Origin: a virus
Reading direction: 5' to 3' (one strand)
Length of the DNA: 62,648 bases
IMG/VR virus record: IMGVR_UViG_3300008988_000001
In this document: piece after piece, positions 1,871 to 57,490 of the stretch
Layout: each line of letters starts with the position of its first letter
How positions within the stretch are numbered: position 1 is the first letter of the stretch
Notes under the pieces: model-generated
What the model was told of the DNA's origin: nothing
Databases searched by the model: none
What the model saw: only the letters and a program-made list of their open reading frames with translations
Program-made: the position numbers and the translations under genes

Positions 1871-3570
1871 TGACACAAAAATCATTCCAAGCTGCTGACC
1901 TCTTTTGCGGCGCCGGCGGAACATCATCGGGGATTTATCGGGCATGCAAGCAGCTGGGCGTTAATGTTGATTTGGTTGCTGTGAATCATTGGAATATTGC
2001 AATCCAGACACATGAAGCAAATCACCCGGAAGCACGTCATATTTGCGCGACGCTGGAAAGCATTGATCCGCGCGAAGCCGTACCCGCCGGTTATCTGGAT
2101 ATTCTTGTTGCTTCTCCGGAGTGCACTCATCATTCAGTGGCCAGAGGGGGAAAGCCGGTAAACGATCAGTTACGCGCCTCAGCCTGGCACATTCTCCGAT
2201 GGGTTGAGTTATTAAGAATCGACAACATTCTGATTGAAAACGTTCGAGAGTTTCGTGATTGGGGGCCAACTGATCAAAAAGGCCGGCCGATTAAAAAACG
2301 CAAAGGTGAAATCTATCAGGCATTTTTAACGGCGCTGCGCTCCCTTAATTACAATGTTGAGGATAGGATTTTGAACGCGGCCGATTATGGAGATCCCACG
2401 TCGCGCAATCGGCTCTTTGTTCAGGCACGTCGGGGCCGGAAAAAGATTATTTGGCCGAAAGCCTCGCACACGATGAGCGACACCTCCGCATTATTTGGTG
2501 ATGAATTAAAGCCATACAGAACCGCACGGGAAGTTATTGACTGGGGCCTGCCTGGAGAATCCATCTTCAAAAGAAAAAAGCCTCTTGCCTCTGCGACGAT
2601 GGCGCGGATTGCTGCAGGACTCCGCAAATATGGCGGTAAGAATGCAGAGCCATTTCTGGTTATGATGTATGGCAGCAATGATGCCCGATCAGTGGATAGA
2701 CCTATGCCCACCGTAACGGCGAACGGGAATCATATCGGACTTTGCAAACCTTTTCTGACGCATATCACTCATACCGGCGGGGACCGGGCCCACGATATTG
2801 ACAAGCCGATGCCGACAATTACCTGTGCGCATCGCGGAGAAATGGCACTTGTCGAGCCTTTTATTGTCCCCTTTTTTGGGGAACGTAAAGGACAAAATCC
2901 GCGAACTCATTCTATTGACGATCCAATACCAACGGTTACAGGACATGGGGCAGGTGCACTTATTGAACCGTTTATTGTCAGATACCACGGAAATCATAAA
3001 GGTCATAACGATTCAGAGCGACGGACCCATGATGTTAATCAGCCGTTGCCGACGCTGGATACGTCAAACCGCTATGCGCTGTGTGAACCATTCATCGCCA
3101 TCATGAAGGGCCAGAGCAAAACACGGGATCTTGACAGCCCGCTGCCGACGATCACGACGAACCCGCATCTCTATTTTTGTGAGCCATTTTTAACGATCAT
3201 CAAAGGAAAAAGCACTGCGTCGGATATCGATAAACCCGTCCCGGCAATTACGACAAAGCAATATGTAGCCCTCTGCCAGCCGTTCATTACTAAATATTAT
3301 GGGTGTGGGGAAGGTGCGGCAAGTGTTGATGCTCCCCTGGACACGATCACCACGCGGGACCGTTTCGGACTGGTTGAGCCATGCACGGACGGCGAGGCGG
3401 TTTATGATATCCGATTCAGGATGTTGCAGCCACATGAGCTTTCTGCCGCGATGTCATTCGATAAAAACTATCAATTCGCCGGGAATAAAACAGACAAGGT
3501 AAAGCAAATCGGTAACGCCGTTCCGGTCCGGACGGCAACGGCTTTATGCAAGGCAATGTTAAGCAATTAA
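1870..3570 (+). CDS. DNA (cytosine-5)-methyltransferase with an expanded variable region
   Basis: Motif I FCGAGG, motif IV SPECTHHS (PC), motif VI ENV, motif VIII SRNRLFVQARR, motif X QIGNAVP. Seven PxPT(I/V)T...EPF(I/L) modules lie between motifs VIII and IX. Confidence 0.9.
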   Translation: MTQKSFQAADLFCGAGGTSSGIYRACKQLGVNVDLVAVNHWNIAIQTHEANHPEARHICATLESIDPREAVPAGYLDILVASPECTHHSVARGGKPVNDQLRASAWHILRWVELLRIDNILIENVREFRDWGPTDQKGRPIKKRKGEIYQAFLTALRSLNYNVEDRILNAADYGDPTSRNRLFVQARRGRKKIIWPKASHTMSDTSALFGDELKPYRTAREVIDWGLPGESIFKRKKPLASATMARIAAGLRKYGGKNAEPFLVMMYGSNDARSVDRPMPTVTANGNHIGLCKPFLTHITHTGGDRAHDIDKPMPTITCAHRGEMALVEPFIVPFFGERKGQNPRTHSIDDPIPTVTGHGAGALIEPFIVRYHGNHKGHNDSERRTHDVNQPLPTLDTSNRYALCEPFIAIMKGQSKTRDLDSPLPTITTNPHLYFCEPFLTIIKGKSTASDIDKPVPAITTKQYVALCQPFITKYYGCGEGAASVDAPLDTITTRDRFGLVEPCTDGEAVYDIRFRMLQPHELSAAMSFDKNYQFAGNKTDKVKQIGNAVPVRTATALCKAMLSN

Positions 3571-3820: not shown

Positions 3821-5464
3821 ATGCTACGGAAACATCAATCTGAAACACAGTCAGTCATGGACCGCATTAAATTGGGCGAACCGATCCGGACGATCTACGA
3901 GCAGGTATGTCCGGGAGGCGGAAAAAGCACCATCCCCATCATGGCCGGCCAACTGATCACCGCAGGCCTGGCCGACAAGCTTCTCTGGATTGCTCCGCGC
4001 CTATCCCTTACCGATCAGGCAGAGCGGGAATTCGTCAACCCGTACTTCCGGTCGATGTTCAACCACAATCTGAAGATCCGGCAGTCAACGAACGAGATTA
4101 ATCCCTGCCGCGGGCTGGACGGCGCATCGACCACGTACAATGCCGCGGGCATGGATGATGGCATATTATTCCGTGAGTTTCAGCAAAGGCGCTACATCCT
4201 GATTTTAGATGAATTTCACCACATTCAGGAAGACAGCCTTTGGCATAAAAAAATAGCCCCGCTTTACAACATGGCCGCTTACAGAATCATGATGACCGGG
4301 ACGCTCGAGCGCGGAGACGGATCCCGGATAGCCTTCACACCTTATCGCGGATCCGGGAAGAACGTCACGCCCTGGATTCAAGACGGACCTGAAACCGCAG
4401 TTATCAGATACACCCGCGCCGATGCCCTGGCAGAAAAGGCGATCATTCCCCTGCAGTTCCATTTATCCGATGGATCAGCAGAATGGGAAGACAACCGCGG
4501 GCGCAAGGTCCGGGTGGCCAGCATGGACAAGATGAACGAGGCCGACGCGAACAAAGCCCTTTATACCGCCCTGAAGACAGAATATGCGGACGATCTTCTT
4601 TCGCACGGTATTGCGCACTGGCAGGAACACCGAAAAAACTACTCGAGCGCAAAGTGCCTTGTCGTAACATCCAACATCAGCGAGGCAAAGAGGCACATAA
4701 AATCACTCGAGCACATAAACGCCCGCGCCGACATTGCCACGTCGGAGGATTCAGACGCAGCGCAAAAGGTCATTAATCGGATGAAAGCCGGTAAACTTGA
4801 CGTCATTGTCACTGTCGCCATGGCATATGAAGGTCTGAACATTCCGGAAGTCAGTCATGTTATCTGCCTGACGCGCATAAGAAGCGTCCCCTGGATTGAG
4901 CAGATGACCGCCCGAGCGAACAGGATTGACCCCGCTTATGGTTACGATGAACAGATAGGCCATATCTTCGCGCCGGCGGACCCACTTTTCAAGGAAGTCA
5001 TGAAAAAAATCGAAGCTGAACAAGCTCCGGTAATGCAAGAAAGATCGTCGCGTTTTCCTTCTTCTCGCGGCGAATCAGAGGACGGCGGCAGCGGATTCCG
5101 TTTGGAACCGGCTCCGGGCGGGATAACGCCGCTGTCCTCTGCCATGACAGGCAAACGGGAAATGGTAATGGGCAAATTGAATAATTGTTCAATTCCCGAA
5201 AAGACAGCCTCAGAACAAGAAGCTGAATTACGCGAGGCGATAGACAGCCACTTGGGACGGTTTGCCTACACGAACCGGTACATGAAACAGAAGCTGAACA
5301 CGGATGTATGCAGGCACTTTGGAAAACCCCGCGGCCAGATGACCATCAAAGAACTTGAGAGCTGTTTGAAGCACGTCCAGCAGACTTACCCGCTGTCATA
5401 CGTCCGCGGGACCGGGCGCCGGGTGCCGACCAAAGCCGTTCCGTTAAATTGTGAATGGAGGTAG
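3821..5464 (+). CDS. Superfamily-2 DExH helicase
   Basis: Walker A GGGKST, motif II LILDEFHH, motif III MTGTLERGD, motif V/VI region AMAYEGLNIP...QMTARANR. Confidence 0.8.
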   Translation: MLRKHQSETQSVMDRIKLGEPIRTIYEQVCPGGGKSTIPIMAGQLITAGLADKLLWIAPRLSLTDQAEREFVNPYFRSMFNHNLKIRQSTNEINPCRGLDGASTTYNAAGMDDGILFREFQQRRYILILDEFHHIQEDSLWHKKIAPLYNMAAYRIMMTGTLERGDGSRIAFTPYRGSGKNVTPWIQDGPETAVIRYTRADALAEKAIIPLQFHLSDGSAEWEDNRGRKVRVASMDKMNEADANKALYTALKTEYADDLLSHGIAHWQEHRKNYSSAKCLVVTSNISEAKRHIKSLEHINARADIATSEDSDAAQKVINRMKAGKLDVIVTVAMAYEGLNIPEVSHVICLTRIRSVPWIEQMTARANRIDPAYGYDEQIGHIFAPADPLFKEVMKKIEAEQAPVMQERSSRFPSSRGESEDGGSGFRLEPAPGGITPLSSAMTGKREMVMGKLNNCSIPEKTASEQEAELREAIDSHLGRFAYTNRYMKQKLNTDVCRHFGKPRGQMTIKELESCLKHVQQTYPLSYVRGTGRRVPTKAVPLNCEWR

Positions 5465-6595: not shown

Positions 6596-7276
6596 ATGCC
6601 ATTGCAGAAATCAAAAGGTCAAATGTACCCATGGGTAACTCATACCCATTGTCACCTGGGCGGTGAATGTCCGCATAAATGCGTTTACTGCTATGTCGAT
6701 CATTTCCCGTTTGGCCGGCCAAGGAAATATCAAGGTGAACTGCGCCTGATCGAGAAGGAATTTTCTGTAAATTACGGGTCGGGAAAGACGATTTTTATTG
6801 AGAATTGCAATGATCTATTTGCTTTTGCAGTTTACCCAAATATCATTAACGGAGTTCTTGAGCATTGCTGCATGTGGCCAGAAAACGAATACGTGTTCCA
6901 GACAAAAAACCCTGACCGATATCATGGCACGTATCAGCCATTCCCACCCAAAAGCATAAGGGGCTGCACCATCGAAACGAACAGAGATTACCATAACATA
7001 AGCCGTGCGCCTGGCCAGATGGAGCGTTATTATGCAATGAGGAAAATGTCGGGCCGCAAATTCATCACCATTGAACCAATTATAGACTTTGACGTTGACG
7101 TTCTATCTGCATGGATGGACATTATACGCCCCGAATTTGTCAACATCGGAGCGGACAGCAAGGGTCACAATCTTCCAGAGCCGACACCGGATAAGATTCG
7201 CGGCCTGATTTCCAAGCTGAATGAATACGGCATTGAGATTCGAGAAAAGCACAACCTGGAAAGGATATTGAAATGA
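6596..7276 (+). CDS. Phage Gp37/Gp68 (DUF5131)-like protein with a CX3CX2C radical-SAM-type cluster motif
   Basis: CPHKCVYCY motif near the N-terminus. Downstream blocks IFIENCNDLF, FQTKNP, ITIEPI and NIGADSKG resemble the Gp37/Gp68 family order. Confidence 0.55.
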   Translation: MPLQKSKGQMYPWVTHTHCHLGGECPHKCVYCYVDHFPFGRPRKYQGELRLIEKEFSVNYGSGKTIFIENCNDLFAFAVYPNIINGVLEHCCMWPENEYVFQTKNPDRYHGTYQPFPPKSIRGCTIETNRDYHNISRAPGQMERYYAMRKMSGRKFITIEPIIDFDVDVLSAWMDIIRPEFVNIGADSKGHNLPEPTPDKIRGLISKLNEYGIEIREKHNLERILK

Positions 7277-12753: not shown

Positions 12754-15700
12754 TCAATCTATTAAAATTGCCCGTTCCTTTTTTGAAGGCCGCTGCATTC
12801 TTTTTGCCTGATTCCTGAGGCTCTCCGAGGTTATGAACGTCTCACCCCTTATGCTTTTGACCTTATCGTTAAATTCCCGGACATCAGCCACGATCTTCCT
12901 GTATTCGTCTTTATCGCGGCCGCCAAGTATCCACGCCCGATATTTTTCATAAATGGCGTTTCTCATGTCTGCAAATTTCGCCTGTTCGCGGTGCCCTTCC
13001 CACGTTCTTTCGGACAAAACAGCTTGATTGGTGGACCTGAACCCCACTGCGCGCGCGGCCGTCTCTCCGGTGCCGGGAGCAAACGGCTTCCCTTTTTCAT
13101 CCCAAACCCTACGGCTATTTCGCGTTGAAACACCCTCTTCTCTTTCCCTCATGGCCCGGAGCGGATTTGCAAACCCTGAAGGAAGTAAATGCTCTGCCGC
13201 GCGCCCTGCATTCCCACGGCTAAGATTCTCCCCGGCTTCTTTTATTTCGGTTGCCACGCCGCCGATAGCGCCGGTCAGATCCATGAAGTTCTTCGGTACG
13301 CCCACCCCAATGGAAAGAGAGCCCGATATATCAATGCCGGCGGCTCCGGTAAGACCATGACGCCCGATCTTTTCAGCATCGGCGCCCAGGTGCTTCCTGA
13401 TTTCATCCCAAACCCACTTCTCCGGATCCCGATCTTCACCAAACAGGGCTTTCAGGATTACCCCGGCAAAACCGAAGATGGCATCTTTAAAGGGCAGCGC
13501 AGCGCCGCCGGCCAGGACCAGTGGAGACAAGAAGGCAAACATGGCCCCTTTGATATTGTGCTTCTTCAGGCCCATATCATAAAGCATCTGAAGGTAGTTG
13601 TGGCCGAACTTCTGATAGACGTAAATCATCTGCCCGAGCTTTGCCGCCGGATTTGCGCCCTGTGCCCACATGGGCATAGTGGACTTCCCATAAACACCGT
13701 GGGCCTTGTCAGTGGCATCCTTTGCCCTTTCAGCCGCTTCGACGTGTCCCAGTCCTGAGCGCCGCGCCAGCCGGTAGGCCGCAAGAACCGTCGTCCCACG
13801 ATTCCATCTTTCGGACTTTCCAAAAAGATACATGGAGCCATCCATCATGGATGACCATATTCGGGAATGAGCCTTAGATATCTCGCCCAGGGCCTCCCGC
13901 GTGTACTGTGCATCATCCCAGCCTTTTTTATGGACCTCATTCATAAATGATGCTTCATCCGGGTTGGAGAGTTTTCTTCCAGCCATCAGAGCCGCATAAT
14001 CTTTTCCGGCAATTCCGAGCTCGCGCAGGATCCCGAACATCGAGCCCTTGCCGCCCAGCGCATATTGATGAATCGCCGCCGGCGCTGTTGTAACAATAGC
14101 GGTCATATTTACCGTCAGGGAGCGGAGGTTAAAGCCGAGAAATTTGAATGTTGCAATAGATTTTGCCAGTCCGATAACCCGGTCTATCGGTTCGGCGTTC
14201 CGCAGCTGTTCTTCGATATAGTTCTGAGCGGTCTGAAATGCCTGCGGGTCTTTCACCGGATCGATACCGCCTATTTGCTTGCCTTCAAACTTCTCCCCGA
14301 GCAACTGCTTCATGGCCAGCCGTGCGACTCTCGCCTTTGAAATCCCCCCGGACAGGCTATTGATGTACTGAAGATGGCGTTGCATAGGATCTTCGATAAA
14401 TCCGCGTACAACTCCATTCCCGCGGTGAATCATGGTTGATCGGAATCCCCGGGCCTTGATTGCGTTCGATACTTCACGGAGAACTTCCTCATTGAATTTG
14501 ACTGTCAAATCATTTCTCAATTCACTTTTCTTGCTCAATTTTTCCAGGGCGGAATCAATCAGTTTCGCCGTGGCCACCGCGTTCACATCCTGATAAATGG
14601 TTTCCGGGATCCGCTCGACTTCTCCAACGTTGTAAATCGTCCATCCTTCCCGTTGCAGTTTGTTGGCCAGGCGGTGAGCGCCCAATTCTGAGCCTCTGTG
14701 CTCCCGGTAGTATTCCCGATTTTCTTTCATGGGTCCGTGTTCTTTATAAGCCTGAACCTTCCAGTTCCCGGATTCGCGCAGTCTCGGAGCGTAAAAGCCT
14801 TTCCACTCTTCCATTTGGGCAAGGGCGCCCTTGAGAGTTTGTTTCAGTTCGTTAAGATCGGGCGTCTCGCCCCTGAAATTGGCTTCCTCGATGAGCTCCT
14901 CGATCATGGTCCGTAACTGCTGGGTCTGTAAATCAAGGGCCTTATCGTAGGACTGCCGGTATAATTTCCATACTCTGATAGTATCCTCAGTTGAATTCTT
15001 CCGGATATGATCCTCAAAATCTTTTAATTGCTGATCGAGGGTCCGGGAAGTGTTCCGCTTCCATGACGTATCGCCTTCATCTATGATCTCCTGCAGGCGT
15101 TGATATTCCGGGGATACTTTGCCGGCCATCCGGTCCGCAAGAGACAAACCCTTATTCTTGAGCGCTTTGGCCGCCTCAACAACGGTGTCCTCGGGCGCGT
15201 CAATATCGTCGGCTGCATTTAGGTCATTAAAGGTTTCGTGATAAATCTCGTTACGATCACGTATGAACAGTTTAACGACATTCCTGATCTGCGGGTGACT
15301 AAACCATTCAGGCGACTTTAACATCGCTTCCCACCAGGTCATCTGTTTTGGATGGAGTTTGTTATTGATGGTCTGGATAAGCGCGGCCGTCTCGTCCTTC
15401 AGATACAGATTAAGGACTTTCGGGTCTTTGCTTACGGGCGGGTCTTGCTGGGCGCGGATGGAATACTGCTCACCCCGTTCAAGTTTTGCTTTCAACATTT
15501 TGGCTATTTTGCTTGTTGTCGCCGGATCATCTATTATTTCTTTATTTTCGGCATATCCTTCTTTAAATTGAAGCGTCCGGTCTGTTATGCCTTCCTTTTG
15601 CGCGAACCATTTTATCCACTGAGCCGGAGAGTTATGCGCTCCGTCAAAGTCATAGATAACGCCATCTATCCGCGCTCCGTAATGTTCAGCGTTATTAAGA

Positions 15701-18700
15701 TTGCTTGCCATACGCACCAGTTCACCGCGGCCCGTAGATTCGATAATAGCCCTGGCACACACAAGGCAACCACCATCAAAAGGACCAGCCCATATCGGTT
15801 TATGATTTAAGAGGATATCCCAAAATTTATCGTCCCTATAAACATTTCTAATGGCGTTGCCTATTTCGTCATGTTTGACTGAATATGCTTCGTCAGTCAG
15901 TGCGCTTTTATCTGTTGTTCTATTATAAACAGAACCACTTTTAATGTCTCTCGTAATTCCCTTGACCGTCCTAATTCCGAAAGCGTTCACCAGCTTATCA
16001 ATGAAGTCCTGAATCTTCGCAACGGTCCGGCCCAGTAAGCCCTTCGGTTCTTTGGTTAGTGCATCAGCAATGAAGTTTGCGCGATCTTCGGCGCCGCCGA
16101 TATCCTTTTTGTTGGCGGTTTTAAATTTTCCTTCTTCGGCAAGGTTCTTGATATGGCGCTGTAATAAATTGATTTCATTCTGGTTTAAAACGCCTATGTC
16201 TTCCATGAGATGGACAGACTCATGATGGAGTGCCCAGCGGTCGGCTGCACCGCGCACAAGTTTTATAACACCCGTGCCCAATTCTTTGTTATAGCCATAT
16301 CCGCCAGAGACAACTTCATCCTGTCCGAGATTTTTTCTCCCGTATCCGATGCTTAAATTCATTTCATTGATTGATATGTGATTGACCTCGGCAATGGTTA
16401 CTATCCTTCCATTATTTAAACCAATCATGAACCCGCCGGGTACTTCTCGGACTTCCTGTCCCTTGAAAGCATTCTGAACATCAGCCAGAGTGGGCATGGG
16501 AATGGTTTCGACCTGTTCTGCAGCCGCGTATTTCTCCTTGACAAGATCATAATCAAAGAGTATCTTTTTACCAGAGCCGAGTTTGGAGCCTCTCACTGTG
16601 GGCAATTGGAGCCCACTTGTCACGCTCCAAGCACGGCTTTTCCCTTTATTCATATACCGAAGCAAGCCGTCATTGATCCACTTTACGAATATACCATCAG
16701 AATCCTTCCCGTAGACACTCGCGATATCATTCACGACATTGCGCCCTAACTGCTTCGATAATCTAATCGCAGCGACGATGGTTTTACCGTCCTGCTGAAG
16801 TTCTGTCATAACAACAAGACTATCCGCTTCTGTGGCAGAATCAAATATCATAATGGGATCGTCAATATGCGCCGGTAACTGTTTCAATGTTTCAATTGAA
16901 ATACTATGTTTCCCTGATGCAACCTTTTCCACCGTTCCCTGTGTGATAACCAAGGGGAGTTGTTCGGCTCCAAGCCTTTCGAGGACTTCCGGAGTCCGGC
17001 CAATCGTAATTGGTTCCAAGCGGTTCGTGATTTTCCCGGCCGCAAAGTCGTCAAGTTGTTCGGAAAAAGACGCATTTTCCCGGATGGCATCCCTTTGTTT
17101 GACCGAATACATCTCCACGCCTTTGTCGGTTTCGCGTGTCTGTAATATTCCGATAAAATCATCAAAAGCCTTGTTGATTGCAATCCGTTCTTTCCCCTCT
17201 GGGTATGGCCGGGCCACAAAACCGTCAATCATCGGCAGAAATATTCCGCCGTGGGCATGGTAAACAAGAAAGTCACTCTGTCCGCCCTTCTCGGCTATTT
17301 TATCTTCAACATAGGCCGCAAACGCCCGCGCCGCCATTTCGTGTGGTTCGCTCCAATAATCTCCGGTTCTAGCCTGGTCCATTTTCTTTGCTTCGATGGC
17401 GTAATTGGTAGAGACTTTCTTTGTCTTTTCTGTCTTGTTGTTTGCATCATTCAGCATTTTCAACCTTGCCGAATAAGTATTCATCGCACCTCGAAGTTGG
17501 TCAAGACTCCCTGTTCTTTCAGAGTTAAACCCCTGCCGATTGCGCACGGACTTCATTATCGCGTTAATATTTTCAAGGGTGTCGTTTGTCCAGCGGTGAG
17601 CCGTTAGCCTGCCGTGGGTTGCCCTGCTCATTCCCGCCGGTCTTTGCATGGGCGTGTTTGCGCCTTCTGGATTATTGTACCTGAAACTCGTTTCCAAATC
17701 ACCGCCTTCAATAAGGATATTCGACAACCGGTCAAATTCGGAAAGCTGTTCCGCTGTTGCAGGCTTCCCGTATTTTGCCCATTTTTTATTATACTTTACC
17801 CAATCGGAATGATCCTCTTCGAGGCTCCGGCGGATTCCCTTTAATTCATTGGAAAGGTTCTCTCTGGCAGCTGATAAGAATCTGTCCGCAACTTTCGTAT
17901 CCTCAACGTACTGTTCAGCCTTTTTATACATTCCTTCCATTAATGATTTGTAGGACGCCTGCAGCTCAGGACGCAGCTTAGAGCGGATGCTTTCGCCGTG
18001 GCTTTGGAATGTATGGCTATCGGCTTGGCGTGGATATGTCAGATCACCGCGTTTATTTGCTGTTTTGTTTGACGTCGCCTTTGTGTCAATTCGGGCAAGA
18101 TAATGATCGAAGGAATGAAACCACTCGTGGGCCAGTGATCCCGCGCCCTTCATTTTTGTGAGGTTGATAACCCCATAGTCCGGTTCGTAATGCGCCTTTG
18201 CGCCCGAAAGCCCCTGTCCTCTGGCCCCGAAGGCAATAGCCATATCACCATTAAGCATCAATGCTTTTGGCGATACATTCAAAGCATCGGCAAGGTCAAG
18301 CAATCCATCGTAGGCATGATTCAAAACCTGTTGCCGTTCTTCCTGATTGTTCCAGTTGCCAAATTCGATAGCCCTGGGCGCGAATGTTTCATTGAATATT
18401 TCCGGCGTAGCGTCTGTCGTGCGTCGTTCAGCGCCTGTCCGTTTTGCTATTTCAGGAACAGGAAGTATCTCTTCCCCAAAGGTTGTTTTGATGTTCAGGA
18501 TTTCCTCGGCGTGTTCGGCCATGTGCTTCATGCCGTCCTCGCGGGAGGGGAATTCCTGATTGACGACCTTGAATAATTTCCGTTCGCCAACTTTTTTATA
18601 GATTGCCCACTGGCCTTTATTCTCCCTGCTTTCAAATACCCTATGGGACTGAGCCACGGCAAAAAGAGGGATTGCTTTTTCTGCCTCTTCCTGCGTCGAA

Positions 18701-21700
18701 AATACCTGCCCGGAACTTCTGGTGATCATCCCAGATTTGGCAGCTTTTGCGTTGGCAATCGTCCAGCCTGTACCGTCCAGTTTTTCAAGGGCGATAAACT
18801 GTTTTTTCCATGCAGGTTGGCCGTCGTCCTCTTTGATTATTTTTCCGCCTTTGGTATATCCGCGCTCAGCCGTATCTTTGCGTGCGCCGCCGATCTTTTC
18901 GCCGAAGTCTTCAAGCTTTCCTTCTTCTTTCGCCTGAAGCTCAGGTTCATTGGCTTCCGGTTCCCTGAACATCTCTTCATTCTTCGGCGTAACCTGCTCG
19001 GAAAGCTTCGGGCTTATCTGTGCTTCGGGATTGGTTAAAGAGAAAGTCTCGGCTTCAGATGCGCCGGGGATTTCGGATTGTTTTGATTTTACTTCTTCGG
19101 AAGAAAGTTTTGCGGGCTGTTCAGCTGCGGGTTGTTTTTCTGTTTTTGCCTGTGCGGATACATTGGCAAAGAAATATTCTACTTCTTGGGCATTGGCTTC
19201 AATTTGTTCGGGAGTATACCCTTCGCCCTCAAGCGCTCCAGCAAGCCCGGCTTCAATATCTGCACGACTCTTTTCACTTGTTCCGGCGTTAAATCCGGCT
19301 GCTTCGAGTTCTGTAAGTTGTCCTTCGATCCACTCATTTTCTGCCCTCGCTATGTCACGGTTGATTAAGGTTTCTGCTTTATCAGGAGCGTAAATCTTTC
19401 TGCCCTGGCCGGTCTTCAGAAGCTCAATAACGTGATCCCCGGACTCAATCGGCCACCCGTCTGCCTGTAATATACTCGCTAACTGGTCAGCCGTCAAGCC
19501 GGACTTCGATTTTAAAACACGCCTTGCGTCCACGTCCTGGCGGAGCAATCGGGCGTTGTAATCACCCATGGTTATTTTGAGGCCACCGAGTTCGCTGATT
19601 TTCGTAACAAGGTTCTGTGCGCCGCGGTCTCGCTTGGCTGGCTTCTGGTCAACCTTGACCATCTTCTCTTTGAGCTTCTTATAATAGATGCTCTTTCCTT
19701 CTGGAGCGTTCGGTTTATAAACTACCTCGTACCCTTCCTTCGTGGGAGTATCTTTCAGGGACTTCTGAATACGTCCAATGTCTTTCCGTCCTGCCTTACG
19801 GATGAAGATTTCGGCGGGTTCGGGTGCATTTTCTGCCGGTTTCGTTTCCGCGGACGCGCTTATGGCGTTTGGCGCGGGTTTTTCGGGCTGTTTAACCGCT
19901 GCCCGCTCGTCAAGAGATTTCTGCCTGTCCCGGTCTGTTAATGCTGCCCAATCTTTGGCCTTATATAAATTCCCGATTCTTGCTTCTTCGTCCCTTAACC
20001 ACCGCCACCTGTCGCCCCTTGTCCCTTTTTCAAGGTGTGGATGAATACCAATTTCATCAGACAGCCTTGACCGCTCTTCGCTGAGAACTTGCATTTTATC
20101 CCGCGCGTCCTCGATGTTTCTGGGAACAAAAGACCCCCCGGATTTCGCTTCATCAGCAATACCTGCTGTCGCGGCTTTGGTTTGTGAGAGAGGCGCGGGG
20201 TGTGGTTCATGTATTTTAATTAAATTGTCTATTTGGTCTGCCAGCTTTTTGGCTTCCGTTGCGCTTCTGTCCAGAGCCTCTTTCGCGGTATTATAGTTTG
20301 GTGATGATGGATCAACGGAAGGGGTTGCCTTGGCGGTTTCGCCAGCGCGTTTACGCAGCCTTGCCGCTATTATTTCGGCAACGTCTTTTCTTTCACCGTC
20401 AATAGCGTCCCTAACTGCCGTTACTACGGAATCTTCATCAATATCCAATAACGTAGAAGAGGCGGCAGCCATCGCCTTTTCCAGCGGAGTCCACTGTGCC
20501 GGCTGCTTTCCTTTTACTAATTTATTTTTTTCGTCTGCAAGAGAATCTATTTTGCTATTTAATGTGGCATTTTCGCCTTCCGACGTTGCTCCAGGTTCAA
20601 CGATCTTTTCAGCCTGTGCTTTGGGTGCCTCGGCAGGTAAAGTCCCGGTAGCGGGCAAGGACTGAATTTCCCCGGCTGGTTTTTTATCGAACAGAACTTT
20701 ACCGCTGGGCGCGATTACTCGTTTAACACTTCCCGCCGATGCAAGGTTCCCATCAGCCAGAAGAACATCACCGTTCATGCTGTTGGGTGAAACGATGTTC
20801 ACCTGTTTTTTTGTCCCATCCAGTAATTCAACCTGCAGCCCTGCGAGCCCTTCATGTTTTCCAGTTAATGCGGATTGTAAGTTATCCTCTGCCGGTTTTG
20901 TGAGTTCTGCCAGCCGCTCAGTATCCTTTTTGTATTTTTCTTGAGCATCCTGATATTCGGGCGTCCAATTCATAGCCGCATTCGTATCAAGATAATGTGA
21001 CTGTAAAGCGACGCTCTGCTTCAGATCCCTTATCTCGGTTTCGGTTTGCAACGACTCATTATCGGCTTCCCCCTCTCCTAATTTTTCAGGTACATCTTCA
21101 TCGATGTTCTTTACCGGAATTATTTTCTTAACCCTTTCCATGTCAGCCCTTACCTGGCTCATGGAATCCGGGCGCGGTTCTGTATCATCCTTTACTACCT
21201 GACTTACCTTCTCTTTCAAATTTTCAACGATAACGCCGTTGAGTCCGTCCTTCAGCGCCGGGTATCGCTCTTTGAACCGATCGACGTCTTCCTCTGTGAA
21301 AACACCGTCCTTTTGCGCGCGCTGGATGATCGTGATCGCATCGGCCGGTGAAAAGGTATGGTCACCGACTTTTCCTGTGCGCATCCCGGCGTCGATCATT
21401 CCGGAGAAAGACGCTCCAACTCTGAGGTTTTTAATATACGTGTCTTCTTCCGGCCTTTTGACCGCGCCGGTAATTCCCTGAGCGCCACCGCCGACGACTG
21501 CGCCGGTCATGCCACCAAGGATAAATGAGTTTATGTATTCATCCCATGCTTCAGCGCTGGTGATGGACTTCCCCTCCACGGCTGCCCGCTCAAGAACGCT
21601 TTGCATTGCTTCGGTGGGTGCTTCCATGACAAACTGCTGTCCGGCAACTTTCGCCATCTTTGAGAGCGTTCCGCCTGCAAACTGCGTTGCGTCCTTACCC

Positions 21701-22533
21701 AGCCAGCCAAGCCTTTTCGCCAAATACCATTCAGGCACAATATCAAGAAGGCCTGCGGGAATTGCCCCGGCGAACGCCCTCAGTGGATCGACTTTGCCGT
21801 TTTCCTGCAGCTGATCACCGGCGATAGAACCGGCTTCCATACCGATTGAAGCGCCGGCCGCCCCTGTTATGGCTCCGCCCTTGATTCCTTTTTCAATGAC
21901 CTGCTTGCCGATCATTTCGGCCACGTCCTTTGACGCACCGGCGGCGATAGCTTTTTCTATGGCCCCTTTAGCGGCTGCCTCTACTGCTTTTTTGCCGATA
22001 ACCGCCCCGGCGCCACCGCTGGCCAGAGAAAGAAGCATATTAGGAATATTCGTGGAAACGCCAAAGGCAAGATATTTTGCAAGATCGGACCCGCTTTCAA
22101 TATCAGTAAATGAGGCTACCTGCGGTTTCGGTGATACGGCCTCGACGTCGGCCAGGCCCTCCGCTCCCCATTTCTTTAAAACATCGGATTCGACGGCTTC
22201 CCCTGCCAACGCGCCCAACCCGTAACCCATGCCACGGACTTGATGAACGCCAGCCTTTAATCCTTTGGGGATCTCGCCCAAAATAGAATCGTCTTTCGGA
22301 GCAACTGCAGAAGTCCCGCTGATCAATTTATCCATGAACGAAGGCGGTTGACGGCGCTTTATGTCTTCCTGAACATGCTGGTCGATTCCCGAGTCCTTTT
22401 TCCAGGTGTCATAATCAGGATATTTTTCAGCATATCCGCCGCGTGTAAAAACATCCTTCGCAACGTCATCAAGAGGCGCATCACCGTAGTAGTCTGCATG
22501 TTTTTTCTGATATCCGAGAATGTCGAAAGCCAT
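12754..22533 (-). CDS. Giant (3,259 aa) multidomain virion protein, polyvalent/ejected-protein class. Two HExxH zincin-like modules and a PLxRFG-like C-terminal region.
   Basis: Single uninterrupted ORF. Gly/Ala-rich hydrophobic N-terminal region. HEWFH at 18115..18129 (aa 1469-1473) with EPHEMAARAFAAYVEDK downstream. HESVH at 16210..16224 (aa 2104-2108). C-terminal hydrophobic segments and ANPLRAM at 13150..13164. Confidence 0.9.
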   Translation of the reverse strand: MAFDILGYQKKHADYYGDAPLDDVAKDVFTRGGYAEKYPDYDTWKKDSGIDQHVQEDIKRRQPPSFMDKLISGTSAVAPKDDSILGEIPKGLKAGVHQVRGMGYGLGALAGEAVESDVLKKWGAEGLADVEAVSPKPQVASFTDIESGSDLAKYLAFGVSTNIPNMLLSLASGGAGAVIGKKAVEAAAKGAIEKAIAAGASKDVAEMIGKQVIEKGIKGGAITGAAGASIGMEAGSIAGDQLQENGKVDPLRAFAGAIPAGLLDIVPEWYLAKRLGWLGKDATQFAGGTLSKMAKVAGQQFVMEAPTEAMQSVLERAAVEGKSITSAEAWDEYINSFILGGMTGAVVGGGAQGITGAVKRPEEDTYIKNLRVGASFSGMIDAGMRTGKVGDHTFSPADAITIIQRAQKDGVFTEEDVDRFKERYPALKDGLNGVIVENLKEKVSQVVKDDTEPRPDSMSQVRADMERVKKIIPVKNIDEDVPEKLGEGEADNESLQTETEIRDLKQSVALQSHYLDTNAAMNWTPEYQDAQEKYKKDTERLAELTKPAEDNLQSALTGKHEGLAGLQVELLDGTKKQVNIVSPNSMNGDVLLADGNLASAGSVKRVIAPSGKVLFDKKPAGEIQSLPATGTLPAEAPKAQAEKIVEPGATSEGENATLNSKIDSLADEKNKLVKGKQPAQWTPLEKAMAAASSTLLDIDEDSVVTAVRDAIDGERKDVAEIIAARLRKRAGETAKATPSVDPSSPNYNTAKEALDRSATEAKKLADQIDNLIKIHEPHPAPLSQTKAATAGIADEAKSGGSFVPRNIEDARDKMQVLSEERSRLSDEIGIHPHLEKGTRGDRWRWLRDEEARIGNLYKAKDWAALTDRDRQKSLDERAAVKQPEKPAPNAISASAETKPAENAPEPAEIFIRKAGRKDIGRIQKSLKDTPTKEGYEVVYKPNAPEGKSIYYKKLKEKMVKVDQKPAKRDRGAQNLVTKISELGGLKITMGDYNARLLRQDVDARRVLKSKSGLTADQLASILQADGWPIESGDHVIELLKTGQGRKIYAPDKAETLINRDIARAENEWIEGQLTELEAAGFNAGTSEKSRADIEAGLAGALEGEGYTPEQIEANAQEVEYFFANVSAQAKTEKQPAAEQPAKLSSEEVKSKQSEIPGASEAETFSLTNPEAQISPKLSEQVTPKNEEMFREPEANEPELQAKEEGKLEDFGEKIGGARKDTAERGYTKGGKIIKEDDGQPAWKKQFIALEKLDGTGWTIANAKAAKSGMITRSSGQVFSTQEEAEKAIPLFAVAQSHRVFESRENKGQWAIYKKVGERKLFKVVNQEFPSREDGMKHMAEHAEEILNIKTTFGEEILPVPEIAKRTGAERRTTDATPEIFNETFAPRAIEFGNWNNQEERQQVLNHAYDGLLDLADALNVSPKALMLNGDMAIAFGARGQGLSGAKAHYEPDYGVINLTKMKGAGSLAHEWFHSFDHYLARIDTKATSNKTANKRGDLTYPRQADSHTFQSHGESIRSKLRPELQASYKSLMEGMYKKAEQYVEDTKVADRFLSAARENLSNELKGIRRSLEEDHSDWVKYNKKWAKYGKPATAEQLSEFDRLSNILIEGGDLETSFRYNNPEGANTPMQRPAGMSRATHGRLTAHRWTNDTLENINAIMKSVRNRQGFNSERTGSLDQLRGAMNTYSARLKMLNDANNKTEKTKKVSTNYAIEAKKMDQARTGDYWSEPHEMAARAFAAYVEDKIAEKGGQSDFLVYHAHGGIFLPMIDGFVARPYPEGKERIAINKAFDDFIGILQTRETDKGVEMYSVKQRDAIRENASFSEQLDDFAAGKITNRLEPITIGRTPEVLERLGAEQLPLVITQGTVEKVASGKHSISIETLKQLPAHIDDPIMIFDSATEADSLVVMTELQQDGKTIVAAIRLSKQLGRNVVNDIASVYGKDSDGIFVKWINDGLLRYMNKGKSRAWSVTSGLQLPTVRGSKLGSGKKILFDYDLVKEKYAAAEQVETIPMPTLADVQNAFKGQEVREVPGGFMIGLNNGRIVTIAEVNHISINEMNLSIGYGRKNLGQDEVVSGGYGYNKELGTGVIKLVRGAADRWALHHESVHLMEDIGVLNQNEINLLQRHIKNLAEEGKFKTANKKDIGGAEDRANFIADALTKEPKGLLGRTVAKIQDFIDKLVNAFGIRTVKGITRDIKSGSVYNRTTDKSALTDEAYSVKHDEIGNAIRNVYRDDKFWDILLNHKPIWAGPFDGGCLVCARAIIESTGRGELVRMASNLNNAEHYGARIDGVIYDFDGAHNSPAQWIKWFAQKEGITDRTLQFKEGYAENKEIIDDPATTSKIAKMLKAKLERGEQYSIRAQQDPPVSKDPKVLNLYLKDETAALIQTINNKLHPKQMTWWEAMLKSPEWFSHPQIRNVVKLFIRDRNEIYHETFNDLNAADDIDAPEDTVVEAAKALKNKGLSLADRMAGKVSPEYQRLQEIIDEGDTSWKRNTSRTLDQQLKDFEDHIRKNSTEDTIRVWKLYRQSYDKALDLQTQQLRTMIEELIEEANFRGETPDLNELKQTLKGALAQMEEWKGFYAPRLRESGNWKVQAYKEHGPMKENREYYREHRGSELGAHRLANKLQREGWTIYNVGEVERIPETIYQDVNAVATAKLIDSALEKLSKKSELRNDLTVKFNEEVLREVSNAIKARGFRSTMIHRGNGVVRGFIEDPMQRHLQYINSLSGGISKARVARLAMKQLLGEKFEGKQIGGIDPVKDPQAFQTAQNYIEEQLRNAEPIDRVIGLAKSIATFKFLGFNLRSLTVNMTAIVTTAPAAIHQYALGGKGSMFGILRELGIAGKDYAALMAGRKLSNPDEASFMNEVHKKGWDDAQYTREALGEISKAHSRIWSSMMDGSMYLFGKSERWNRGTTVLAAYRLARRSGLGHVEAAERAKDATDKAHGVYGKSTMPMWAQGANPAAKLGQMIYVYQKFGHNYLQMLYDMGLKKHNIKGAMFAFLSPLVLAGGAALPFKDAIFGFAGVILKALFGEDRDPEKWVWDEIRKHLGADAEKIGRHGLTGAAGIDISGSLSIGVGVPKNFMDLTGAIGGVATEIKEAGENLSRGNAGRAAEHLLPSGFANPLRAMREREEGVSTRNSRRVWDEKGKPFAPGTGETAARAVGFRSTNQAVLSERTWEGHREQAKFADMRNAIYEKYRAWILGGRDKDEYRKIVADVREFNDKVKSIRGETFITSESLRNQAKRMQRPSKKERAILID

Positions 22534-53654: not shown

Positions 53655-53708
53655 ATTATTTCATAAGTGAAGGATGAAATCAAGAAGAATGTTTCGATAC
53701 TGAAACTA
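53655..53708 (-). promoter_or_regulatory. Leftward early promoter with two operator-like sites
   Basis: On the minus strand: -35 TTGATT (53683..53678), 17-nt spacer, -10 AATAAT (53660..53655). Operator copies lie at 53688..53708 and about 53656..53676. The module is homologous to the one at 56623..56676. Confidence 0.5.
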
Positions 53709-55489: not shown

Positions 55490-55855
55490 ATGGGGAAACA
55501 CCAAAATAAAAGCGCTATTCCATTAGAAAAGCTTGTTCTTCGTTGTTATGGAAGACAGTTGGCTGATGACAACTGGTATGGCGTCTGCATAAATTTGAAT
55601 CTCGCTGTCGAAGCATCATCGCGAGAAGAACTTGTTGAAGAAATGAGCGCCGTCATCAAGAGTTATCTGGAAACAGTTCTGGACACAAAAGACGTTAAGT
55701 CTATCCCTGAGCTTTTATCCAGGAAAGCTCCCCTGTCTGATCAGATTATGTATTACCTGATCGCTTGTATTTACCACATCAATAATATACCGAAGAATAA
55801 ATTCTTTAAATTTAAAGAGTTTATACCATTCCACTTTGCTCATAACCGTTGCTAA
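55490..55855 (+). CDS. hicB: HicB-like antitoxin candidate
   Basis: GGAAGGAGGG RBS. NWYGVCINLNLAVEASSREELVEEMSAVIKSYLE resembles the HicB N-terminal fold pattern. The next gene, hicA, starts at the following base. Confidence 0.45.
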   Translation: MGKHQNKSAIPLEKLVLRCYGRQLADDNWYGVCINLNLAVEASSREELVEEMSAVIKSYLETVLDTKDVKSIPELLSRKAPLSDQIMYYLIACIYHINNIPKNKFFKFKEFIPFHFAHNRC

Positions 55856-56104
55856 ATGGGAAAACACTACCCCCTCCTTGACCGAGAACAGGTAGAAGCA
55901 ATACTACGCGCACTTAATTTTAATCCGAAACGTCAAGGGGGTACCAGCCACTGTCAGTGGGAAGGATATACAAAAGGACTCCGGCGGATCGTTACAGTTG
56001 ACCACCTGAAAAAAGGACGCAAGGAGAAATACACTCACCGCCTTATGTCGAAAATGATTCAACAATCTGGTATTTCAAAAGACGAATTTTATTCTAATTT
56101 CTAA
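55856..56104 (+). CDS. hicA: HicA-like mRNA interferase toxin
   Basis: LRALNFNPKRQGGTSHCQWEG....RIVTVDH.......L.SKMIQQSGISKDEF fits the HicA/YcfA pattern (G-x-S-H, TVP/TVD-H, QxG). Confidence 0.65.
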   Translation: MGKHYPLLDREQVEAILRALNFNPKRQGGTSHCQWEGYTKGLRRIVTVDHLKKGRKEKYTHRLMSKMIQQSGISKDEFYSNF

Positions 56105-56139
56105 AAATTGATTCCTTAGTTCATCGTATACATTCATCA

Positions 56140-56161
56140 ACCCGCTACGGCGGGTTTTTTA
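56140..56161 (+). terminator. Rho-independent terminator after hicA
   Basis: ACCCGC-TACG-GCGGGT followed by TTTTTT. Confidence 0.7.
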
Positions 56162-56320
56162 TTGCCTGAAAATCAACCTCCCCACTCGAAAGCATGGCAT
56201 TTTTGCACAAATTGTTCTAATTGGCCCACGTATGATTACGACGAGAAGACAACAAAACCCACGTCTGGAGAACTTTGTAATGAATGCCTCTCGAAGCAGA
56301 AAGCGGGAACTTGTAAATAG

Positions 56321-56560
56321 CTAAAGGTTAAAGCAAGAAAAGGTCTTTTGTTCGCCGGCAAAATAAAGAGATTCAATCACATAATTGATTTTTTTTAATG
56401 AGGCGAACGCATCGAAACACGCCAAACATACCACATTGTTCTGAAGCATGGGGGGAATAACTTCCTCCCATGTTTCATTTTGTACATTGAAATTAAATTT
56501 GTCCTTTCTGCCGCAAACTTTACAGGTCTGTTGATGCGGGTCAGTTAAATAATTAATCAT
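56321..56560 (-). CDS. Small zinc-ribbon protein
   Basis: 79-aa ORF with CKVC...CLAC. Divergent from the rightward early promoter. Confidence 0.5.
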   Translation of the reverse strand: MINYLTDPHQQTCKVCGRKDKFNFNVQNETWEEVIPPMLQNNVVCLACFDAFASLKKINYVIESLYFAGEQKTFSCFNL

Positions 56561-56590
56561 TCCAACCTTAGTTACTTTCTATTTTCCCCT

Positions 56591-56618
56591 ATTTTACACC
56601 CTTCCCAGATCCCTGCAA
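56591..56618 (-). promoter_or_regulatory. Possible promoter for 56321..56560, back-to-back with the rightward promoter
   Basis: On the minus strand: TTGCAG, 16-nt spacer, TAAAAT. Confidence 0.25.
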
Positions 56619-56622
56619 GAAA

Positions 56623-56676
56623 AATGTTTCAGTATTGAAATATTCTCTTGACACAATGTTTCAGTTGTGAAATACT
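56623..56676 (+). promoter_or_regulatory. Rightward early promoter with two palindromic operators
   Basis: -35 TTGACA (56648..56653), 17-nt spacer, TGa-AATACT extended -10 (56668..56676). Operators AATGTTTCAGTATTGAAATAT (56623..56643) and AATGTTTCAGTTGTGAAATAC (56655..56675), each TTTCA-N4-TGAAA. Confidence 0.55.
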
Positions 56677-56682
56677 ACGCTC

Positions 56683-57093
56683 GAAACAAAGCAGCAACGA
56701 TCTTTGAAAATTAGGGCCAGTAGATAGTAAGCGGGAAAGGTCAGTCCAGTACAATCGAACGGACAGGGCAAATGGGTACACGGTGTTATCGGATAGAGGT
56801 GAATTCCCCCCAATACAAGCGAACGAATATTTCTACGCAATCGGAGACCGGCAAAGCGTTACGGGAAATGCTCCGGTTGGCCCTGAGACAGCAAAGCAGT
56901 AACCCCGAAGCGGCACGATCAAACCGCTCGGATCGCTTGGCAACCGGCAACGGAAATAAGACCTCGCATCCAATGAGCAAGATCAACAGCTGCGTATTCC
57001 GGTGGAATGGGGCCGGGGTAAATGAGTAGGGAGCCTGCCAGGGCAGCGGACAGGGAAGTGGAAAAAATAACGATCTTTGTGTGGGAGGATTTA
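56683..57093 (+). ncRNA. Long untranslated leader or candidate structured RNA. No convincing ORF; visibly GC-richer than its flanks.
   Basis: About 410 nt separate the predicted transcription start from the next RBS-led ORF. Pairings found by hand: AGGGCCA 56712..56718 with TGGCCCT 56879..56885, and hairpin CCGAAGCGG...CCGCTCGG 56904..56931. Class unknown. Confidence 0.25.
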
Positions 57094-57324
57094 ATGGAAC
57101 CGAGCGAACTTGAGAACAGATTTACCTATCATGCACCAAAGCCGGGACAGCCCGAGATTTATTCCAGTATCAGGGATAAAGCAAAAGAGCTGGCAATCTT
57201 GATTAACTCTGTATGTCCGGAAAGCAGGGAAAAGAGCCTTGCTTTTACCGACCTGGAAAATGCTGTTTTTTGGGCGAATGCTTCTATCGCCAGAGCCGGC
57301 CTCAGATTGCTAGCGTCATGCTGA
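57094..57324 (+). CDS. Small helical phage protein, candidate Acb2-like cyclic-oligonucleotide sponge (family assignment from memory, unverified)
   Basis: GGGAGGA RBS. MEPSELENRFTYHAPKPGQPEIYSSIRDKAKELAILINSVCPESREKSLAFTDLENAVFWANASIARAG carries the widespread F-x-YH-x-P...SREKSLA...WANA.IAR signature. Confidence 0.5.
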   Translation: MEPSELENRFTYHAPKPGQPEIYSSIRDKAKELAILINSVCPESREKSLAFTDLENAVFWANASIARAGLRLLASC

Positions 57325-57367
57325 AAAAAGAAAACGGCCTGTGGGCGGCTTAGCGTTTGGAGGGGTT

Positions 57368-57490
57368 ATGGAAAAGCGCATTGATGCCATCTTTTATTTT
57401 ATCGATACGAAACTGAAACCGGTTATCTGGATCACGATGATATTCGCACTGATCTACTTTATGCCGGCGATTTTGAGGATGCTTCAGTGA
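57368..57490 (+). CDS. Very small membrane protein (40 aa), below the ORF-track cut-off
   Basis: Hand translation gives MEKRIDAIFYFIDTKLKPVIWITMIFALIYFMPAILRMLQ. GGAGGGG RBS; its stop overlaps the next start (GTGA). Confidence 0.35.
   Translation: MEKRIDAIFYFIDTKLKPVIWITMIFALIYFMPAILRMLQ

Follow-up and report, generated by a model that had tools for sequence, protein, structure and literature searches.

A conserved 150-nt module in a noncoding segment between an early promoter and an Acb2-family gene: a candidate composite leader of a phage early operon

The DNA analysed in this study is a stretch of 62,648 nucleotides (nt), IMG/VR record IMGVR_UViG_3300008988_000001 (hereafter the window), which covers all or much of a phage genome and carries genes for the small and large terminase subunits and for a primosomal protein. 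We report the characterisation of the segment at positions 56683-57093, which separates a rightward early promoter from a gene of the Acb2/Tad1 family at the head of a recombination operon. The segment is noncoding, and it contains a module at 56904-57053 that is homologous to an intergenic spacer of a related phage and is under selection. The genes that follow the promoter differ among related loci, which are designated here by L-numbers, and the segment is best described, as discussed below, as a probable leader of composite origin.

The early promoter, the segment and the genes behind it

The principal features of the locus are as follows.

56578-56620, minus strand: conserved block of a divergent control region, ~79% identical to positions 3401-3512 of L046 over 103 aligned pairs.
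56623-56674, plus strand: a pair of operator-like 20-nt repeats, AATGTTTCAGTATTGAAATA (from 56623) and AATGTTTCAGTTGTGAAATA (from 56655; 2 matches against 0.01 expected).
56648-56676, plus strand: rightward early promoter, TTGACA-17-AATACT with a TG extension (10/12 matches in a sigma-70 pattern scan).
56683-56898, plus strand: lineage-specific 5' part of the putative leader, purine-rich and folding less stably than its shuffles.
56904-57053, plus strand: conserved module, homologous to the intergenic spacer of L046 at 4449-4588.
57083-57089, plus strand: ribosome-binding site (RBS) of the Acb2 gene, GGGAGGA, read from the sequence.
57094-57324, plus strand: gene of 76 amino acids (aa) for a nucleotide sponge of the Acb2/Tad1 family, ATG at 57094 (PF24729, E = 8e-21; phrog_1454, E = 1e-27).
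57368-57490, plus strand: gene for a 40-aa hydrophobic protein starting MEK, the probable positional counterpart of the small membrane open reading frame (ORF) of L046.

An earlier reading of the letters alone (the sequence-only reading) had described ~410 nt between an early promoter and a first RBS-led ORF at 57094, and both the promoter and the GGGAGGA site with its ATG were confirmed. The promoter is strong, the top sigma-70-type match within 4.6 kb, and by its position the transcript would start near 56683. Each operator-like repeat contains a TTTCA..TGAAA dyad; one lies just 5' of the -35 hexamer and the other covers the spacer and the -10 hexamer, and a similar operator is carried by the promoter of L041. 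DNA pattern scans for the operator and for the promoter returned nothing from viral and genome collections. The divergent control block was also present in L054 and L134, and is thus conserved in at least four phage lineages (window, L046, L054 and L134). On its minus strand, TTGCAG-16-TAAAAT was read by eye as a candidate leftward promoter for a 79-aa gene at 56321-56560. A weaker resemblance to the divergent control region was seen near 53657-53706, beside the repressor-like/regulator gene pair of the window (~53.4-54.1 kb).

Behind the segment, the rightward block encodes, in order, Acb2, the 40-aa membrane protein, a winged-helix-like protein of 97 aa, proteins of 64 and 358 aa, SbcD and an SbcC-like protein, and thus includes SbcD-like and further recombination genes. 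Acb2 serves phages as a sponge of cyclic-nucleotide immune signals (PMC10312549), and the match to the Acb2/Tad1 hairpin family PF24729 bears out the earlier proposal that an anti-defence gene stands downstream. Homologues of Acb2 on other contigs align from residue 1 of the ATG at 57094, and not from the upstream ATG at 57022. The 40-aa protein gave no significant sequence match to the 48-aa membrane ORF of L046; their correspondence is suggested by position, the shared MEK start and similar RBSs of the GGAGGGG type.

The ~410 nt between the promoter and the Acb2 gene hold no credible gene. The only ORF considered by the sequence-only reading (56772-57029, 85 aa) has no usable RBS, as that reading had stated, and its codon-usage score is 0.00 bits per codon against 0.27 +/- 0.11 in real genes. 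Stop-free fragments of all six frames gave nothing significant in Pfam and PHROGs (best E = 0.16), and a 101-codon frame searched with HMMER against 1.84 billion representative proteins returned a single weak match (E = 2.8e-4). Public gene calls for three contigs identical across the region show only a 100-aa, N-terminally extended Acb2 ORF (57022-57324). The presence of an unrecognised protein gene, such as the 85-aa ORF or a frameshifted gene, is very improbable: although a 101-codon frame is open and the GC content and AT skew resemble those of the neighbouring plus-strand genes, the stretch lacks an RBS, codon signal, family, homologue and public gene call, and its alignment with L046 is broken by gaps into 21 blocks with no conserved translation detected. 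A frameshifted pseudogene was rejected since the codon and 3-periodic Markov scan remained at noise level, and stop-codon reassignment since all three stops end genes here and each frame holds several kinds of stop. The segment is therefore noncoding, in agreement with the sequence-only reading.

The composition of the segment was described by the same reading as much richer in GC than the flanks. The GC content is 0.516 in the segment, 0.365 in the left flank, 0.476 in the Acb2 gene and 0.479 in the entire window; the segment exceeds only one of its flanks, the left one.

The conserved module and the variable slot behind the promoter

The evidence that part of the segment has been retained comes from L046. 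The module opens on CCCGAAGCGGCA, common to the window and L046, and its last bases are GGCAGCGGA(A)CAG. When the segment was locally aligned with the spacer of L046, the score was 62, against 32 +/- 5 for dinucleotide shuffles (maximum 48 in 500 shuffles). As an empirical null, the L046 spacer was aligned with all 624 overlapping 400-nt segments from the two strands of the window, and the segment ranked first of the 624; the next score was 42, and the mean was 26 with a standard deviation of 5. The alignment comprises 103 matches, 28 mismatches and 28 gapped bases, giving 79% identity over the aligned pairs, and is split into its 21 blocks by many short gaps; blastn and tblastx comparisons detected no conserved translation across it. 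In four orthologous genes, fourfold-degenerate sites of the window and L046 are 24-44% identical, that is, saturated. Because the module is still alignable while the fourfold sites between the two phages are saturated, it is under constraint, and we conclude that 56904-57053 is under selection.

Homologues of the 97-aa protein led to syntenic loci. The 97-aa, 358-aa and SbcD proteins have homologues in L046-L049, L053 (the same contig as L143), L134, L135 and L142, and the 64-aa protein in L046-L049 and L135; L134 is contig DJVN01000195.1, binned with a Syntrophaceae bacterium. The promoter block is common to the window, L046, L054 and L134 and heads the syntenic operon there. The arrangements at the related loci are as follows.

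L046, after the promoter: leader of ~40 nt, AAGGAG, 301-aa repeat protein, 180-nt spacer, 48-aa membrane ORF.
L134, after the promoter: leader of ~30 nt, 84-aa gene, ~335 nt of noncoding DNA, 40-aa membrane ORF.
L053: leader of ~245 nt.
L142: leader of ~350 nt.
L054: leader of ~105 nt.

Since the arrangements just behind the promoter differ among the loci, with a 301-aa repeat protein in L046, an 84-aa protein in L134, and an orphan sequence of ~215 nt plus Acb2 in the window, this place is a variable slot. A noncoding stretch of ~105-350 nt stands ahead of the small membrane ORF in L046, L053, L054, L134 and L142, and a purine-rich noncoding stretch before that ORF is a regular feature of the operon. 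In the closest relative by the 97-aa protein, P0019 (74% identity; contig ENA ERZ1426834), 556 gene-free bases were found at the corresponding place, upstream of its operon.

No Acb2 match was found in L046, L053, L134 or L135-L151, and the gene, which the syntenic relatives lack, is a cassette specific to this lineage. Metagenome relatives of Acb2 (24 loci, 40-73% identity) lie in unrelated contexts, most with an ORF directly before Acb2, and the DNA upstream of Acb2 in these 24 loci has no similarity to the segment. A blastn search of the 771-nt region 56560-57330 against the phage collection INPHARED gave matches solely within the Acb2 gene, and the segment itself returned nothing from the plasmid collection PLSDB by blastn. 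Blastn and tblastx searches of the segment against the rest of the window and the related loci revealed no similarity, and no copy of the segment was present in 80 viral loci encoding relatives of the 97-aa protein or in 17 encoding relatives of the 358-aa protein. Three scans for motifs of the module in ~2.9 million viral contigs yielded chance matches only, as checked with nhmmer.

The first ~215 nt of the segment (56683-56898) showed no significant similarity to the leaders or first genes of the relatives, which ranked it 40th to 751st among 834 segments of the window. This part is probably filler left by cassette turnover at the slot after the promoter. A decayed hammerhead ribozyme at 56856-56903, proposed from a shared CGTTACG...GTAAC, was tried and rejected, as the corresponding region of L134 scores at background against the window.

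A broader possibility is that the entire segment, module included, is functionless debris, either a recombination scar or the decayed remains of former first genes. The slot holding other genes in each relative, the orphan character of the 5' 215 nt, the lack of a folding signal (described below) and the frames of 101 and 107 codons open on opposite strands, which hint at past coding, are all compatible with it. However, a block of 150 nt that is 79% identical while fourfold sites are saturated is not expected of neutral DNA, and no translated similarity to the genes of relatives or to protein families was found. Debris throughout is accordingly regarded as possible but rather unlikely.

The direct repeat, RNA elements and related leaders

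The following smaller features were read within the segment.

56696-56706, plus strand: first copy of AACGATCTTTG, which supplies the 3' arm for a weak CAAAG/CTTTG hairpin where the putative transcript begins.
56713-56719 and 56878-56884: pairing arms AGGGCCA and TGGCCCT, by sequence reading.
56905-56913 and 56924-56931: hairpin arms CCGAAGCGG and CCGCTCGG, by sequence reading.
56997-57009: hairpin ATTCC-GGT-GGAAT, by sequence reading.
57069-57079, plus strand: second copy of AACGATCTTTG, separated by 3 nt from the RBS that follows.

The 11-nt repeat had led to the suggestion that the segment could be an inserted element with a target-site duplication; such an element would be a small non-autonomous mobile one of ~362 nt that entered a compact leader and duplicated 11 bp of its target. 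The repeat is real: AACGATCTTTG is exact at the two sites and occurs nowhere else in the window. Its significance did not hold up, because the window contains ~20 comparable direct repeats (34 exact 11-mer pairs 50-500 nt apart, against 9.7 +/- 3.6 pairs in first-order Markov shuffles), and the repeat alone carries no weight. A related motif, ACGATC, is enriched in the related leaders (5 observed, 0.4 expected). The ends of the repeat-bounded piece, AAAATTAGGGCC... and ...GGAAGTGGAAAAAAT, are not complementary, and no terminal inverted repeats were found at its borders. No second copy of the 362-nt core was found in the window, in ~150 related loci, in INPHARED or in PLSDB. The insertion model predicts an empty site in which one AACGATCTTTG is directly joined to GTGTGGGAGGA. 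The compact layout of promoter, leader and RBS that was envisaged does exist, with leaders of ~30-40 nt in L046 and L134, but the first genes there differ, and AACGATCTTTG was not visible in the leaders of L046, L054 and L134 as read. With a repeat at chance frequency, ends that are not inverted, no other copies and a module inside that is ancestral to the operon, the insertion model fails, and an origin of this kind is exceedingly improbable.

Stable or catalytic RNA structure was sought by several methods. Rfam 15 covariance models gave no match at the gathering score in the entire window, nor did a search of 56400-57400 at E <= 10 yield a match inside the segment, and ARAGORN identified neither a tRNA nor a tmRNA gene in the window. 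The hammerhead core (CUGANGA...GAAA) is absent from the segment, with no Rfam hammerhead match at E <= 10; CTGAGAC and GGAAAT are present, but in the wrong order and with A at position 8. Minimum free energies of the segment were compared with dinucleotide shuffles and gave z = +1.05 on the plus strand and +1.54 on the minus strand. In 120-nt pieces inside the segment, plus-strand z values ranged from -1.2 to +2.3 and were mostly positive, and the significant plus-strand values for this length (-2.6 and -3.2) were confined to the palindromic operators. All the pairing arms put forward by the sequence-only reading are thus present, two of them one base from where they were first placed, but folding is no better than in shuffled sequence.

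Features of an expression platform were also considered. The plus-strand scan between the promoter and Acb2 revealed neither a terminator-like nor a second promoter-like site. The RBS has a predicted pairing probability of 0.72 in the window and 0.53 in L046; masking of the RBS by an upstream tract was rejected as a conserved device, since it is predicted in each phage but the partners differ. At the putative transcript start, CGCTCGAAACAA (56680-56691) loosely resembles boxA when read by eye, and no N-like gene was recognised among the neighbours that were scanned.

The leaders of the related loci share a composition and in several cases carry elements of their own. All are purine-rich (A ~0.3, G ~0.29, T 0.14-0.19). 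AAGCG occurs 11 times in them against 1.7 expected, at 8.2 per kb compared with 1.0 per kb in the window, while its complement CGCTT occurs at 1.9 per kb; the enrichment of AAGCG and CGAAGCG is strand-specific. The strand asymmetry of the composition and this enrichment both favour action at the RNA level. Mini-hairpins of the form nnCG-AAG-CGnn, with differing flanking pairs, recur by eye in the window, L046, L053 and L134. A canonical type I hammerhead was identified on the minus strand of L134 at 7124-7172 (RF00163, 35.4 bits with a gathering score of 34, E = 4e-7), and none of its core positions is missing. It begins 3 nt past the stop codon of the variable 84-aa first gene and lies ~285 nt 5' of the small membrane ORF. 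In L142, a tRNA-Met(CAT) at 3150-3223 lies inside the ~350-nt leader, at the position taken by the hammerhead in L134 and by the orphan sequence in the window.

A noncoding block of ~85 nt was found just before the small membrane ORF at L053 3672-3762, L134 6925-6835 (minus strand) and L142 3222-3314. Two hairpins, CGTAAC-CAGC-GTTACG and GCCCTGC-GCTG-GCAGGGC, are separated in it by a conserved single strand, GAAAC..GTGCTGA..AACAGAATAACTG, and the second hairpin adjoins GGAGG. Compensatory changes were seen in both hairpins, the block has no Rfam match, and it is a candidate new leader motif. A profile of the block gave no detection in the window, L046, L041 or L054. The likeness of the window to the loci with the hammerhead, the tRNA and the 85-nt block is one of position only, as none of these elements is detectable in the window.

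In L041, the leader of ~285 nt that follows a promoter with the same operator holds, by eye, a GGGCCTGG/CCAGGCCC hairpin and then a short T run at 4238-4275, just before a 38-aa ORF, an arrangement that suggests regulated termination in that lineage. The int-alpA RNA (RF02996) scored above the gathering threshold at L036 1559-1628 and, on the minus strand, at L043 428-495, L046 809-872 and L139 1148-1216; none was found in the window.

These results bear on the proposal that the segment is a novel structured cis-regulatory RNA, such as a riboswitch or a put/nut-like antiterminator, or a stand-alone early RNA with a possible anti-defence role beside Acb2. The constraint on the 150-nt module, the strand asymmetry of the composition and of AAGCG, the recurring mini-hairpins, the L041 hairpin with its T run and the loosely boxA-like start of the transcript could be read in its favour. 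Weighing against it are the empty Rfam search, folding z values at or above zero nearly throughout, the missing terminator-like site, the orphan 5' 215 nt, the chance outcome of the motif scans, and the two distinct module sequences, which allow no valid test of covariation. A structured or stand-alone RNA at the conserved block is without positive support beyond conservation. The analysis thus did not sustain this suggestion of the sequence-only reading, and we consider it improbable.

Several neighbouring features were noted in addition. At 56162-56560, two convergent small Cys-rich genes, of 52 aa (plus strand) and 79 aa (minus strand), recur as a unit, beside prmA in a bacterial chromosome (L031) and near an integrase gene (L030). 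Because it recurs in these contexts, the pair is mobile in its own right and not tied to the early operon of the phage; loci with relatives of the 79-aa protein (L005, L030-L035) show no synteny with the window. At 55490-56104, a gene for a 121-aa protein (phrog_12841) is followed by one for an 82-aa protein weakly resembling the HicA toxin. The two may form a toxin-antitoxin pair, and a strong hairpin resembling a terminator follows them at 56139-56156. Inside the structural gene block, 12754-22533 on the minus strand is taken up by one ORF of 3259 aa.

The segment as a probable composite leader and its place among known systems

The explanation that we favour, with a confidence a little above even, is that the segment is the composite, transcribed 5' leader of the rightward early operon, situated at a hot spot of cassette exchange. 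A promoter stands upstream and neither a terminator-like nor a second promoter-like site intervenes before the first RBS-led gene; the promoter and the operon are common to relatives, in which noncoding sequence lies at the equivalent place. RNA-processing elements occupy that noncoding position in some relatives, namely the hammerhead of L134 and the tRNA-Met of L142, which also speaks for this explanation. On this explanation the module at 56904-57053 is ancestral, L046 having kept it between its first gene and the small membrane-protein gene, and the Acb2 cassette would have entered between it and the gene for the small membrane protein. The module would act in cis on the RNA, as suggested by its strand-asymmetric, purine-rich make-up, from a site fixed ~35-40 nt ahead of the next RBS, where it would most likely set the processing, stability or translation start of the following mRNA.

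A number of points weigh against this explanation, or against parts of it. Transcription through the segment, like the RNA-level action and the specific role of the module, is predicted from the arrangement of the sequence, and the module could act as DNA rather than RNA. The module is known from two distinct sequences, L046-L049 being identical within the block, which is too few to validate a structure by covariation. RNAalifold yielded a weak consensus (-11.6 kcal/mol across 200 columns), and its 6 of 26 pairs with double changes are uninformative, since the structure was derived from the same two sequences. Folding energies do not surpass those of shuffled sequence, and the tract predicted to pair with the RBS is not the same in the window as in L046. 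A density of five or more [ACG]AGCG motifs per 250 nt is also found in coding parts of the window, and the similarity of the segment to the leader family of L053, L134 and L142 is not significant. Finally, the description of the 5' 215 nt as filler rests solely on absence of evidence.

The leader proposed here invites comparison with several known arrangements. In phage lambda, the leader from pL to N is ~220 nt long and contains nutL and an RNase III site. Like leaders of the lambda type, the segment follows an operator-controlled early promoter, keeps the first early gene several hundred untranslated bases away from it, stands in cis to the operon and has in part been conserved in relatives. 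Unlike the lambda leader, it is about twice as long and mostly unconserved, and no boxA/boxB pair, N-like protein or processing site was identified.

For hammerheads next to variable prophage genes, it has been proposed that they cleave long phage transcripts to yield gene-length mRNAs (Perreault et al. 2011, PMC3088659). As with these prophage hammerheads (RF00163), the segment is a noncoding element beside variable accessory genes in a putative long phage transcript, and L134 has a hammerhead at the equivalent place. In contrast, the window has neither the core nor an Rfam match, and the hammerhead region of L134 is at background against it.

A further parallel is offered by the slot itself. 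Accessory-gene cassettes ('morons') and anti-defence genes insert into conserved phage operons, and here too a conserved promoter and downstream operon frame a changing slot, which in the window holds a sponge gene of the Acb2 family. The Acb2 cassette differs from morons in having neither promoter nor terminator of its own, and the present finding concerns the noncoding DNA around the cassette rather than the gene. The likeness to miniature inverted-repeat elements and other small non-autonomous insertions with target-site duplications lies in the ~360-nt piece bounded by an exact 11-bp direct repeat; the segment departs from such elements in its lack of inverted ends and of other copies, in the chance frequency of the repeat and in its partly ancestral interior.

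Taken further, the module and the purine-rich, AAGCG-rich leaders found at the same position in relatives might constitute a new class of cis-acting phage leader RNA. It would mark a landing pad for the exchange of anti-defence and other cassettes, and would process the downstream early mRNA or insulate it from the cassette that happens to be there. This extension is prompted by the hammerhead in L134, the tRNA-Met in L142 and the covarying two-hairpin block in three loci, all carried there by relatives, and we regard it as unlikely at present.

Since neither a hidden mobile element, nor a riboswitch, nor an RNA gene was found in the segment, Acb2 and the recombination operon can be annotated as genes driven by the promoter at 56648-56676, with a probable long leader in between. 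Most of the segment is ordinary, and it is best classed as a new and partly conserved case of a long leader in a phage early operon. The remaining novelty lies mainly in the constrained 150-nt block. The position behind the early promoter is a hot spot for the exchange of accessory genes in this phage group, and small RNA elements also occur there. If the module controls the processing or translation of the mRNA, it could serve usefully as a marker in searches for anti-defence cassettes.

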